Assembly: GCA_963824385.1 (NCBI GenBank)
Contig: CAWGPD010000003.1
Coordinates: 192,001 to 256,000 of the forward strand
Reading direction: 5' to 3'
DNA: 64,000 nt
Source: an uncultured Nitrososphaerota archaeon
Lineage (GTDB): Archaea; Thermoproteota; Nitrososphaeria; Nitrososphaerales; Nitrosopumilaceae
Position numbers: made by a program. This document shows positions 45,001 through 48,000 of the stretch, in pieces; position 1 is the first letter of the stretch, and each line of letters opens with the position of its first letter.

Positions 45001-48000
45001 GGGAAGATGCCGTAGAATTTTTACTTGCAGGGGCAAGTGCTGTACAAATTGGTAGCGCTGTTGGGGAAAAATGGACTGGAGTATTCTCTGAAATTAATAA
45101 TGGAATATCAAAGTATATGGAAAGAAAAAACTTTACAAAGATAAAGGAGATGGTTGGGATTGCAAAAAAGTTTTGATACTCCAAAGATAGTAACAATAGA
45201 AAAAATGGTGGATGAAACTCCCACTGTTCGTACTCTATTCTTTTCTGATGAAACACTATCAAAGGTACTTCCAGGACAATTTGCTATGGTGTGGATACCT
45301 GGCATAAATGAAATTCCTATGAGTGTCATGATATCGCAAGAAAATGGAAAAGCTGCTTTTACAGTAAGAAAACATGGGCTTGCTACAACTGAATTATTTT
45401 CAAAAAGGGTTGGTGATCAAATAGGAATTAGGGGTCCTTATGGTAATTCATTTACTATAAAACAAGGTAAGATACTTCTAGTGGGAGGAGGAACAGGACT
45501 TGTTCCTCTTCTACGACTAGTAACATTTCTCAAGAAAAGTGATGATGTAACTATAATTATGGGCGCAAAAATGCAAGTCGAAGTCTTTTTTGAAAGTCTT
45601 GCAAAAAAACTACTAGCGGGAACTAGACACCAAGTAATTGTTGTAACTGAAGATGGAAGTTATGGTGAAAAAGGTCTTGTTACAGATGTAATAGACAAGT
45701 TGTTGAAATCTGATAAATTTGATGCAATTTACACATGTGGTCCTGAAAAAATGATGTACAAAGTTGTACAGATTGCATCTGAAAACAAGATCTATGTTGA
45801 GGCAAGCATTGAAAGAATGATGAAATGTGGAATTGGAATATGTGGTAGCTGTTGCTTTGGTGATGTAATGGCATGTAAGGATGGTACAGTCTTTGATGGT
45901 CCCTCTCTTCTTGCAAACAAGGAGTTTGGTTTCACTCATAGAAACAAATCGGGCATGATTGAGAACTATTAACGGTGGAACTGTTGGAAAACTTAAAATG
46001 CTCTCAAAAGTCATTGAAATTGAAAATTGGGTCATCCTAAAATCGTATTAACTGCAGATCGTACACTAATGTCTCCCTATCGTGGGATATCTTTAGCAAC
46101 CTTCTTTGGTTGTGCACCTGCAGTAGACCCACACAGACCAAAAAACAGTTTCTGGTATTATATTCTAAAAGATCAAGTTACTCCCAAAGTTCTCTTTGAC
46201 TTTATCTGTAATCCTATAAGCAATACAAATGGTGTTGCAGATTATGCTCCATATGGACTACGTAAAGTAGAAGCCGCTCTTCTAAGAGATGGATACAAAA
46301 GAGAAGATGTTGTAGTAGCACATCCTGATCATGTAGACAAGTTCATCGGTCCTGAAACTCAAGTAGTTGGTACTTATGAAATGGATCCTCTTGGAATGGG
46401 TCCTGTAACTATGACATTTACTTATGGTAGAAAACAGACATCGTATGACGAATTTTACAACCGTGACTTGCATATGAAGATTAATGCTGCAAAGAAGAAA
46501 AACGGAAGTAATGCCAAAGTCATAGCTGGAGCTTCTGGAACTTGGCAGTATAATTATGATCCAAAGAAAATTCAAGAATATGGATTGTATGCAGTACTAG
46601 AAGGAGAACTTGGTGGTATAGCTCCAGAGATAGACGGACATGCTGGAGAATTCTTTAACAAACTTATTGGTGGAGAATTTGAAAACATGAATCCATTTGT
46701 TAAAAGCGATTTCAAAGTTGAGATTAAAGAATTTGGAAAAGACGAAGAAAAATTCCATGGTAGATTTATCCATTACTGGGATGAACCCGGAGTTGATGAA
46801 ATACCAAACATAGTGGAGCCAAGCATGCACGGAATGGTAGAAGTCATGCGAGGTTGTGGAAGAGGTTGCAAGTTTTGTGATGTTACACTAAGACCATTGA
46901 GATACTATTCACCTGAAAAAGTAAAACAAGAGATTCAAGTCAACATAAAGAAAGGAGGACAACGAAATGCATGGCTTCATAGTGATGATATCTTCGTCTA
47001 TGGCCTTGATCCAAGAAAGACAAAGAACATGGCTCCAAACAGAGAAGCATTAGAAGAACTCTTCAAAGCAGTCATGTCATGTGGAATAGAACACACCAAT
47101 CCAACTCATGGTACTTTAGCCGGTGCAATTGCTGATGAAAAATTACTTCCAAACATTTCAAAGATAATCCGTTCAGGTCCAAACAACAAGACTGGAGTTC
47201 AATGTGGATTTGAAACAGGAAGTCTTAGATTAATAGGAAAATATGCTGATAGGAAACTTGCTCCATACAAACCAGAGGAATGGCACTGGGTTGTAAAAGA
47301 AGGGGTAAAAACACTAAACGAGAATCACTGGATTCCTGCTTTTACTCTAATCATGGGTCTTGATAATGCTGAAACTGAAGAGGATGGGTGGGATACAATA
47401 CGCCTCATAAATGAACTAGAACTAGAACAACCCGAATCACAGTTTACGGTAACTCCACTTACATTTGTCCCAATAGGACTACTTGAAAAATCAGAGTTCT
47501 TTGATATTGGAAATGAATTGACTGCTCCACAACTAGGTGTCATGTACAAGACATGGCAACACAACTTCAAGTATGGGATTCAGAAATTCATGGACAAGAC
47601 AGGAAGTAATAATACTTTTAAGAGAAAGGCATTTACTGGCCTTGCAAGAGCTTTGGGTGGTGTTCCATTGAATGCAATGGAGAAATATGCAAGAAGAAAG
47701 GGTCCAGAACACGAGAGAGTAATTGAGACTATCAAGACAAAGTACTGGTAGGCAATACCCAAATACATAAATTGAATTAAAATAAAGTTCATCCGTGCCA
47801 ACTCACGGATCGCTTACTAAAGCAGGAAAAGTAAGAGGACAAACTCCAAAGGTTCCATCACGAGAAAGACATGGAACTATATCCATTACAAGAAACAAAG
47901 ATAATTTTAGAAAAAGATTCATCCTAAAAAGAGTCCCAGGCCAAAACAAGCCAACTCAGAGAAAAAGAAGAAAGTAGAGCAGTAATTTTAAAAAAATCAT

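Follow-up and report, generated by a model that had tools for sequence, protein, structure and literature searches.

The gene g01223 is very probably the long member (hereafter L) of a pair of Grs-family radical SAM genes found in essentially all ammonia-oxidizing archaea (AOA), corresponding to the N. maritimus gene of 1,725 nt that is called 'grsA' in mLife 2024. That paper lists L as 'grsA' and its short paralogue (S) as 'grsX' in AOA (PMC11442133), its Table S4 gives lengths of 1,719–1,737 nt for the AOA 'grsA' genes, including 1,725 nt for that of N. maritimus SCM1, and 88% of AOA genomes were reported to hold all four of the markers amoA, accA, grsA and grsX (PMC11442133). Two N. maritimus homologues, Nmar_1388 and Nmar_0336, are both listed in the supporting information of a PNAS 2026 paper (PMC12974425 SI), and we infer that Nmar_1388 is the counterpart of L; these locus tags are named in no main text of the literature that we searched. 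As far as Table S4 and the supporting information describe this AOA pair, there is no substantive difference between its long member and g01223. L is thus an already known gene and an already published ring-synthase candidate, as is S (PMC11442133, PMC12974425). In a 2022 preprint, one extra grs copy had likewise been proposed as the maker of the cyclohexyl ring (10.1101/2022.08.15.504015). No experiment, biochemical or genetic, on a thaumarchaeal Grs homologue turned up in the literature searched, and the published labels for L and S are weak and mutually inconsistent; mLife uses 'grsA' for the long form, which the PNAS data sheet, to judge from gene order, lists as 'GDGT ring synthase B'.

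An open reading frame for a protein of 574 aa lies on the forward strand of the window (the whole 64,000-nt stretch of DNA that was analysed), as the earlier note had stated and as the ORF listing and translation confirm. Its parts are as follows.

46027..47751, + strand: long-form (L) Grs-family radical SAM gene, 574 aa, TTG start (ORF listing and translation)
46027..46626, + strand: N-terminal Rossmann-like (cobalamin-domain-like) half, residues 1–200 (AF2 model with alternating strands and helices; Foldseek)
46123..46173, + strand: L-specific insertion 1, residues 33–49, aromatic-rich, DPxR...FWYxIL...QV (88-row alignment)
46633..46776, + strand: inter-domain linker insertion, residues about 203–250 (alignment and AF2 model)
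46837..47409, + strand: radical SAM core domain, residues 271–461 (Pfam PF04055)
46855..46878, + strand: CX3CX2C motif (C277, C281, C284) for the SAM-cleaving [4Fe-4S] cluster (sequence GCGRGCKFC)
47524..47742, + strand: C-terminal helical region, residues 500–572 (AF2 model with three long helices, 500–524, 530–558 and 560–572)

Proteins of 574 aa match L from end to end at 97–98% identity. Its sole Pfam match is Radical_SAM (PF04055, residues 271–461, E 1.7e-7), and among NCBIfam models TIGR04013 matches weakly (1.1e-10), far under the family cut-off, both in agreement with the earlier note. The Pfam B12-binding model has no match in L and only sub-threshold or weak ones in its relatives. 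The three cysteines of the motif are invariant across a 62-row alignment (A2). Two insertions set the long form of AOA apart. The first, at residues 33–49, is missing from the rows of clades B and C′ (see below), S and the Sulfolobaceae-like proteins in the 88-row alignment, is conserved in the three L rows compared (families f1, f12 and f7) and includes a predicted helix at residues 42–47. The second lies in the linker, where residues 203–209 and 224–245 are unmatched in the rows of B, S and the Sulfolobaceae-like proteins and where the AF2 model predicts a β-hairpin (229–236 and 243–250). The surrounding genes are housekeeping genes, and no lipid genes were found among the gene neighbours of L.

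The AF2 model of L is confident (pLDDT 90.1, pTM 0.90), and its top Foldseek matches are cobalamin-type or MiaB-type two-domain radical SAM enzymes, namely MgmA, MiaB, RimO, TsrM, OxsB and TokK. The closest solved folds to the model are MgmA (PDB 9ccb), which is the nearest at E 8.6e-16, and TsrM, OxsB, TokK, CysS, MiaB and RimO, with E values of up to 1e-6, all at TM about 0.45–0.5; these enzymes share only 11–16% identity with L and differ from it in substrates and chemistry (methylation, methylthiolation). A Grs structure was not among the Foldseek matches. GDGT synthesis involves a further radical SAM enzyme, tetraether synthase (Tes, GDGT-MAS). L itself was rejected as Tes after a phmmer search against all PDB chains returned only RimO/TM_1862 (E 4e-3). 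Two other B12-like radical SAM genes of this genome, considered as candidates for Tes, proved to be a MiaB/RimO-type methylthiotransferase (L185, E 2e-42 to RimO) and a CysS/TokK-like enzyme (L184), and Tes was not located among them.

GrsA and GrsB, which according to passages of PMC9385802 form the cyclopentane rings of GDGTs at C-7 and C-3, belong to a common family with L, being two-domain radical SAM enzymes with which it shares 27–31% identity across some 520 residues. For comparison we used Sulfolobaceae anchors from family f25 genomes, a single-copy protein of ~505 aa (type i) and a protein of 528–541 aa (type ii), which we presume to be GrsA and GrsB, respectively, on the grounds of copy number and of consistency with the hit table of PMC11442133. 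The ~505-aa protein is 76–82% identical to proteins of Saccharolobus sp., Acidianus brierleyi, Metallosphaera sp. J1 and Sulfolobales archaeon HS-7, and 87% identical to a protein named Sulfolobaceae archaeon. By blastp, L shows significant full-length homology to the Sulfolobaceae-like Grs proteins of family f25, matching the single-copy ~505-aa protein at 31.5% identity across 517 alignment columns (E 7e-64) and the 528-aa type at 27% identity (E 1e-52). These values are matched by the full-length DIAMOND rows of PMC11442133 Table S4, in which AOA long forms are 29–31% identical to Saci_1585 GrsA (E about 1e-54 to 1e-61). A profile search of genome contigs with a Thermoprotei-clade alignment gave 80 loci (Bathyarchaeia, Asgard, Hadesarchaea and others), none from Sulfolobus.

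The trees, which were quick searches with SH-aLRT support values, placed L within one Nitrososphaeria-dominated clade of 43 rows (99 in the LG+G4 tree) that also holds S and the non-AOA relatives and is separate from both Sulfolobaceae-like clades (types i and ii). Unlike GrsA and GrsB, L therefore sits in a separate Nitrososphaeria clade, in addition to carrying its two insertions (about 50–70 additional residues), a position in line with the clustering of thaumarchaeal homologues away from the GrsA and GrsB clades that was reported in PMC8473941. Because L falls outside both the presumed-GrsA and the presumed-GrsB clade in the LG+G4 tree, ring specificity is not transferable to it from either enzyme. 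In three trees L was sister to a non-AOA Nitrososphaeria long-form clade, C′, with support of 89 in the first tree, 98 under LG+G4 and 95 under a mixture model; the supported clade includes the long-branch row P0136 in the first and mixture-model trees, the latter placing P0136 inside C′. Clade C′ comprises proteins of 544–579 aa from families f6 and f8, together with P0127, a protein of a Calditenuaceae MAG. Like L, they carry an insert at this point of the linker, and they align with L over the full length at 38–43% identity. Unlike L, they are without the aromatic 33–49 insertion, their linker insert is unalignable with that of L, and they come from genomes without amoA. Since L has this non-AOA long-form sister clade, the L subfamily would predate ammonia oxidation.

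The distribution of both paralogues was examined across 151 genomes of Nitrososphaerales, this genome included, each at least 90% complete; amoA was found in 92 of them. At a cut-off of at least 69% identity, L-type matches occurred in 93 of the 151, i.e. in 91/92 amoA-bearing and 2/59 amoA-less genomes. The earlier claim that L is exclusive to AOA thus holds as a pattern in this larger sample, but it is not strict, given the long-form sister clade outside AOA. The two amoA-less genomes with L (G091, 96% complete, and G139, 93%) both belong to the AOA family f12, and one amoA-bearing genome (G015, 97% complete, 130 contigs) is without L. This is the distribution to be looked for in a gene that all crenarchaeol producers share and that is absent elsewhere, and because AOA are one clade it represents a single event. 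However, S (521 aa in G108), counted at a cut-off of at least 75% identity, is also found in 91/92 amoA-bearing and 2/59 amoA-less genomes of the same set; the amoA-bearing genome without S is G058, and the best amoA-less match beyond f12 is 49% identical. As the counts for S equal those for L, distribution does not separate L from the other candidates, and the AOA-restricted pattern, which had been taken as a mark of L over S, cannot single out L as the cyclohexane-ring candidate. Nor do amoA-less genomes carry shorter paralogues only, as had been supposed, since the long forms of the amoA-less families f6 and f8 align to residues 3–565 of L. In 8 of 9 amoA-less genomes inspected in detail, clades B and C′, the nearest relatives of L, supply the sole members of the Nitrososphaeria Grs clade; G119, of family f8, seemingly has an S-like gene alone (44% identical to S and 34% to L).

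In the present genome, S was located where the earlier note had put a second paralogue, on contig C4 (G000:C4:585756-587098, 34–44% identity to L). The indels said to split it are two insertions of one base each, near codons 178 and 316. Contigs from public runs of three studies, at least 99% alike, are one letter shorter at both insertion sites; the letter at L002:1080 is missing in X1, X2 and X4, and that at L002:1491 in X1, X2, X4 and X6. Because contigs from three other studies are without the inserted bases, the split is an assembly artefact, neither biological nor a natural knockout.

Whether L forms a C-7-type cyclopentane ring or the crenarchaeol cyclohexane ring is not decided by sequence, distribution, phylogeny or gene context, and as a cyclohexane candidate L appears no better supported than S, the two being equally good. 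The division proposed in the earlier note, with the cyclohexane ring closed by L and the cyclopentane rings left to S, is in our estimation rather unlikely. Such a division would fit with the confinement of L to the AOA clade at the identity cut-off used, with the conservation of its clade-specific insertions and with its stem branch, the longest in the family (0.54 vs. 0.32 for S under LG+G4, and 0.82 vs. 0.44 under the mixture model). L also departs from the family-conserved columns at 5/51 positions, of which G169A and D188Y fall in the N-terminal domain, and S at 3/51, although this difference seems too small to use. In addition, TK0167 alone gives GDGT-1 to GDGT-4, according to passages of 10.1101/2025.10.20.683597; one Grs therefore suffices for four cyclopentane rings elsewhere in archaea, and a second universal paralogue would be free for another role. 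A more specific version, which we likewise consider improbable, is that L was neofunctionalized on the AOA stem, from a long-form Grs common to non-oxidizing Nitrososphaeria, to become the cyclohexane-ring synthase, the 33–49 insertion and the enlarged inter-domain hairpin serving to reach the deeper-lying C-11 to C-15 of a biphytanyl chain that is cyclised already. Against a cyclohexane role for L stand the identical distribution of S, the existence of the non-AOA long-form sister clade (98 and 95) and the finding that the nearest relatives of L are alone in most of the amoA-less genomes inspected, which suggests, weakly, that the lineage of L carries the basic ring-forming role. Moreover, the supporting information of PMC12974425 records a decrease of the L-type protein Nmar_1388 at 32 C, the condition of higher crenarchaeol in SCM1, and S likewise decreases.

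The reverse assignment, in which L would be a GrsA-like C-7 cyclopentane synthase and S a second-stage enzyme that puts the cyclohexane ring on a GDGT already bearing rings, is possible, even if we would not call it probable. In PMC11442133 Table S4, L, labelled 'grsA', consistently best-matches Saci_1585 GrsA, and S, labelled 'grsX', often best-matches Saci_0240 (about 10 rows). Our blastp scores agree, being best for S with the 528–541-aa Sulfolobaceae-like type (E 3e-82 to 8e-71) and for L with the 505-aa type, and the reverse assignment would also accommodate both the restriction of S to AOA, which equals that of L, and the amoA-less genomes in which the B/C′/L lineage stands alone and S-like genes are extras. 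However, the identity gaps are small (27–31% either way), G119 appears to have an S-like gene alone, the larger sequence novelties lie in L rather than S, and the decrease at 32 C extends to S. A third reading, which we consider doubtful, is that the cyclohexane ring is made by neither paralogue alone, either because another enzyme such as the PflA-like radical SAM protein Nmar_0217 is responsible or because both paralogues are jointly needed. In N. maritimus at 32 C both Grs homologues go down and Nmar_0217 is the sole radical SAM protein to go up, as reported in passages of PMC12974425, whose authors propose Nmar_0217 for crenarchaeol synthesis; a further competitor, the AOA-exclusive radical SAM g00892, was named in the earlier note. 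Yet flux can be judged only weakly from protein abundance, the annotation of Nmar_0217 is that of a small activase-type radical SAM protein (K04069; PMC12974425 SI), unlike the known lipid-tail radical SAM enzymes, and the presence of two universal Grs paralogues for at most four cyclopentane rings would still want explaining (10.1101/2022.08.15.504015).

Family membership, fold, distribution and tree position were established for L directly, and from GrsA and GrsB we infer its substrate and chemistry. By that analogy L most likely works downstream of tetraether synthase, with the biphytanyl chains of GDGTs as its substrate; SAM would be cleaved by the C277/C281/C284 cluster to a 5′-deoxyadenosyl radical that takes a hydrogen off the isoprenoid chain, with carbon–carbon bond formation and ring closure to follow. 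In the N. maritimus proteome, Tes and both Grs homologues are described as the most abundant radical SAM proteins (PMC12974425 SI).

Crenarchaeol is the signature lipid of AOA, whose GDGTs underlie the TEX86 temperature proxy, and the enzyme of its six-membered ring was still called unknown in a passage of a preprint as of mid-2025 (10.1101/2024.07.09.602736). Identification of the ring enzyme would make the origin of the biomarker datable and its producers traceable in metagenomes. The non-AOA sister clade of L could be used as a natural control, and the orthologues of thermophilic AOA (family f7), at 73–75% identity to the query proteins, should be better suited to thermophilic expression hosts.

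The long-form Grs-family (GDGT ring synthase) radical SAM gene g01223, here L, is considered sound in start and length, because its N-terminus (GHPKIVLTADRTLMS) matches the family consensus start in the alignment and its closest database relatives (97-98% identity) are equally 574 aa long. The features of its surroundings that matter here are, in window coordinates:

46027-47751, + strand: L, 574 uninterrupted codons, TTG start
44267-44557 and 44520-45176, overlapping frames: pyrD, split, matching DHO_dh profile positions 9-84 and 93-291
48412-49562: radA region, broken into several short ORFs, then a 195-aa Rad51-domain ORF

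The neighbours inspected encode Trm1, RNase HII, fibrillarin, Nop56/58, PyrD, PyrK, RadA, L21e, an Rpb4-like protein, KsgA, a methyltransferase and an isocitrate/isopropylmalate dehydrogenase, with no lipid gene among them. For the named relatives of L, from Nitrosotalea, Nitrosotenuis and Nitrosopumilus, annotation goes no further than 'radical SAM' or 'B12-binding domain-containing radical SAM protein'. Its sole Pfam match is Radical_SAM (residues 271-461), and its NCBIfam matches are weak and sub-threshold (TIGR04013, 1.1e-10, 251-bit cut-off); the picture is the same for the short paralogue S, for clade B, for the non-AOA long-form clade C' and for both Sulfolobaceae-like types, and neither L nor any of these matched a curated Grs model in Pfam or NCBIfam. 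The family is small, with 634 clusters at E<=1e-3 and 139 at E<=1e-30 in a HMMER search of 1.84 billion representatives; in it, the entire L clade forms one full-length cluster (P0122, 78%) and the following full-length match stands at 46%. The GCGRGCKFC cysteines C277, C281 and C284 are invariant in the 62-row family alignment. A confident AlphaFold2 model built from that alignment (pLDDT 90.1, pTM 0.90) has as its closest solved folds in Foldseek the two-domain radical SAM enzymes MgmA (9ccb, E 8.6e-16), MiaB, RimO, TsrM, OxsB, TokK and CysS (TM about 0.45-0.5, identity 11-16%). Searched by sequence against every PDB chain, L matched RimO/TM_1862 at E 4e-3 and nothing else, tetraether synthase being absent from the matches. 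L is very probably a Grs-family enzyme acting on GDGTs, an assignment that is well supported.

The earlier note had proposed, from an AOA-exclusive distribution, that L closes the cyclohexane ring of crenarchaeol and that the shorter paralogue makes the cyclopentane rings. The distribution was reproduced in a set of 151 Nitrososphaerales genomes, selected at 90% completeness or more and including the source genome G000 (5 contigs, 1.68 Mb, amoA present). amoA (PF12942) was found in 92 of these, namely G000, 39/39 of family f1, 6/6 of f3, 10/10 of f7 and 36/38 of f12, and in none of ten further families. L-type genes (at least 69% identity) occur in 93 (G000, 39/39, 5/6, 10/10 and 38/38, respectively), that is, in 91/92 amoA-bearing and 2/59 amoA-less genomes. 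Because the two amoA-less carriers, G091 and G139, are fragmented and belong to the AOA family f12, their amoA is probably unassembled. The amoA-bearing genome without L is G015 (f3; 97% complete, 130 contigs), with a best match of 49% over residues 248-518. S (at least 75% identity, with the 521-aa protein of G108 as query) gave the same counts, 91/92 and 2/59: it is present in 39/39 f1 genomes, in G000 as three pieces of 93-97% identity, in 37/38 f12 genomes in full and in G121 in part, in 9/10 of f7 and in 6/6 of f3, and is missing from G058 (f7; 95% complete, 220 contigs). Its best matches in amoA-less genomes outside f12 reach 49% (G003) and 44% (G119). Each of these patterns counts as only one event in evolution, since the AOA are a single clade, and L and S cannot be distinguished by them. 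The tie of L to AOA thus stands at 69% identity and above, but it is shared by S, and a sister clade exists outside the AOA. The absence of L from G015 and of S from G058 may be due to gaps in the assemblies, or these may be AOA that naturally have a single paralogue.

The split of the second paralogue by indels, as described previously, is an artefact. In G000, S (contig C4, outside the window) runs through three reading frames owing to two single-base insertions relative to G108 at about codons 178 and 316, and the amino-acid identity of its pieces (93-97%) exceeds the DNA identity (87%). Public metagenome contigs at least 99% alike have one letter fewer at position 1080 of locus L002 (X1, X2, X4) and at position 1491 (X1, X2, X4, X6; X6 does not span position 1080); three studies supplied these runs, possibly including that of the source sample. 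S is therefore intact in the population, the organism possesses L as well as S, and nothing on function follows from the split. Together with the pyrD and radA splits, these frameshifts suggest that the G000 assembly is indel-prone, which would explain its 86% completeness despite only 5 contigs. On the contig that carries S, L184:924-2579 (G000:C4:645223-646878) encodes a 551-aa B12-type radical SAM protein that is not Tes. Among solved structures it is related only to the methylases CysS (E 4e-7) and TokK (E 9e-6), and it may itself methylate lipids or a cofactor.

Of the Grs family, four AOA genomes inventoried in detail (G108, G021, G012, G002) have exactly L and S; the thermophile-like G006 (f7) has six members, in agreement with the up to six grs copies published for thermophilic Nitrososphaerales; and G015 has four (S, B, an S-like copy and one of another clade), none of them L. 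In both G006 and G015 a clade-B gene and a gene for a 553-572-aa protein of a different clade form a tandem:

G006:C1:1110456-1113320 (f7): tandem Grs pair, loci L010 and L024
G015:C17:14085-16895 (f3): tandem Grs pair, loci L049 and L060

Grs-family members of the nine amoA-less genomes inventoried in detail:
G004, G050, G010, G020: clade B alone
G064: clade C' alone
G042: two C'
G089: two C' and a third, broken match
G005: C' and one member of another clade
G003: two B, one S-like, one basal

No Grs-family match at E<=1e-10 was found in 12/33 f8 and 5/5 f11 genomes, so ring formation may be absent from part of the non-oxidising Nitrososphaerales.

Three trees (FastTree, 128 rows; IQ-TREE LG+G4, 90 rows; IQ-TREE LG+C20 PMSF, 49 rows), rooted on two short f25 proteins to which no function is assigned, agree on the placement of L. 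It forms a tight clade (support 100) whose stem exceeds all others in length (0.54 with LG+G4, 0.82 with the mixture model) and whose sister is C', which comprises long forms (544-579 aa) from amoA-less f6 and f8 genomes and P0127, in NCBI a Calditenuaceae or 'Thaumarchaeota' MAG protein. Support for L plus C' is 89 (FastTree), 98 (LG+G4) and 95 (LG+C20 PMSF), values that are SH-aLRT from quick searches and join two long branches; the very long row P0136 also falls inside this clade in the FastTree and PMSF trees. With clade B (about 510-525 aa; amoA-less f4, f5, f9 and f10, and the AOA genomes G006 and G015) they form a 29-row clade (100). The S clade, with stems of 0.32 (LG+G4) and 0.44 (mixture model), has amoA-less relatives of its own (P0134, G003 L039). 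Under LG+G4, L, C', B, S and relatives constitute a 43-row clade (99) apart from two Sulfolobaceae-like clades, which fits the reported separation of thaumarchaeal homologues from GrsA and GrsB (PMC8473941).

Read against an 88-member family alignment, L has two regions of extra sequence:

residues 33-49: L-only insertion of 17 residues with a conserved aromatic core, FWYxIL; residues 42-47 a predicted helix (AlphaFold2, pLDDT about 90)
residues 203-209 and 224-245: inter-domain linker extras, a predicted beta-hairpin

C' has a linker insert at the same site, but the two cannot be aligned. At 51 columns conserved to at least 85% among the 75 rows outside L and S, L deviates at five (F145N, G169A, D188Y, M407A, P446D) and S at three (P75Q, S399A, M407L). 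As read from the alignment, the insertions and substitutions of L show change on the AOA stem and do not indicate its direction.

As GrsA/GrsB anchors, Sulfolobaceae-like genes of four f25 genomes stood in for Saci_1585/Saci_0240. Type i is one gene of about 505 aa per genome, 76-82% identical to proteins named Acidianus, Metallosphaera and Saccharolobus and 57-62% to ones named Pyrodictium occultum, Infirmifilum, Thermofilaceae, Staphylothermus and Caldarchaeales. Type ii (502-541 aa) has one copy in the 2.1- and 2.2-Mb genomes and two in the 3.0- and 2.8-Mb genomes, matching the two grsB copies reported in S. solfataricus (10.1101/2022.08.15.504015). The best score of L is with type i (31.5% identity, E 7e-64), that of S with type ii (29-31%, E 3e-82 to 8e-71). 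Table S4 of the mLife 2024 study agrees with these scores, labelling AOA genes of 1,719-1,737 nt grsA, with saci_1585_GrsA as top match (about 29-31%), and genes of about 1,536-1,611 nt grsX, with saci_1585_GrsA or Saci_0240 as top match (PMC11442133).

The L gene and its candidate status are already published. A 2022 review regarded it as likely that Thaumarchaeota possess both a GrsA homologue and 'another Grs', then unidentified, for the cyclohexane ring (PMC9385802). The mLife study defined clusters GRS-A and GRS-X; in it 88% of AOA genomes carry amoA, accA, grsA and grsX together, and in the Tara metagenomes the four stand near 1:1:1:1 (PMC11442133). A mid-2025 preprint still called the cyclohexyl-ring gene unknown (10.1101/2024.07.09.602736). 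Its Table S4 places SCM1 grsX at 298,821-300,401 and grsA at 1,270,263-1,271,987; gene-order pairs in the supplement (_147 = Nmar_0141, _420 = Nmar_0396) make gene _349 Nmar_0336, from which we infer that S is Nmar_0336 and L is Nmar_1388. PNAS 2026 gives Nmar_0336 and Nmar_1388 as the Grs homologues of SCM1 and reports that both are abundant and lower at 32 C (PMC12974425). The literature searches, which did not extend to Zeng et al. 2019, its supplements or mLife Figure S5, turned up no experiment on any Grs of Thaumarchaeota and no publication that gives the long form in particular the cyclohexane ring; those sources may be relevant here.

The earlier observation is real, subject to three corrections: the non-AOA sister clade, the artefactual split of S and the distribution that S shares. 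L as the specific maker of the cyclohexane ring is a possible but rather doubtful reading, which the AOA-bound pattern and long, modified stem of L support no better than its rivals are supported. The reverse assignment, with the ring closed by S, is a tentative reading of slightly greater weight: S has the same phyletic pattern, and L bears the grsA label and S that of grsX. Against it, the larger sequence changes are those of L. A third enzyme, or joint action, is likewise somewhat unlikely; PNAS 2026 proposes Nmar_0217 instead for crenarchaeol (PMC12974425).

Some Nitrososphaeraceae-like genomes (f12) carry a second, more divergent L-type copy: G112:C1:2349039-2350709 is 70% identical over residues 4-546, and G103 has an extra 69% copy and fragments.
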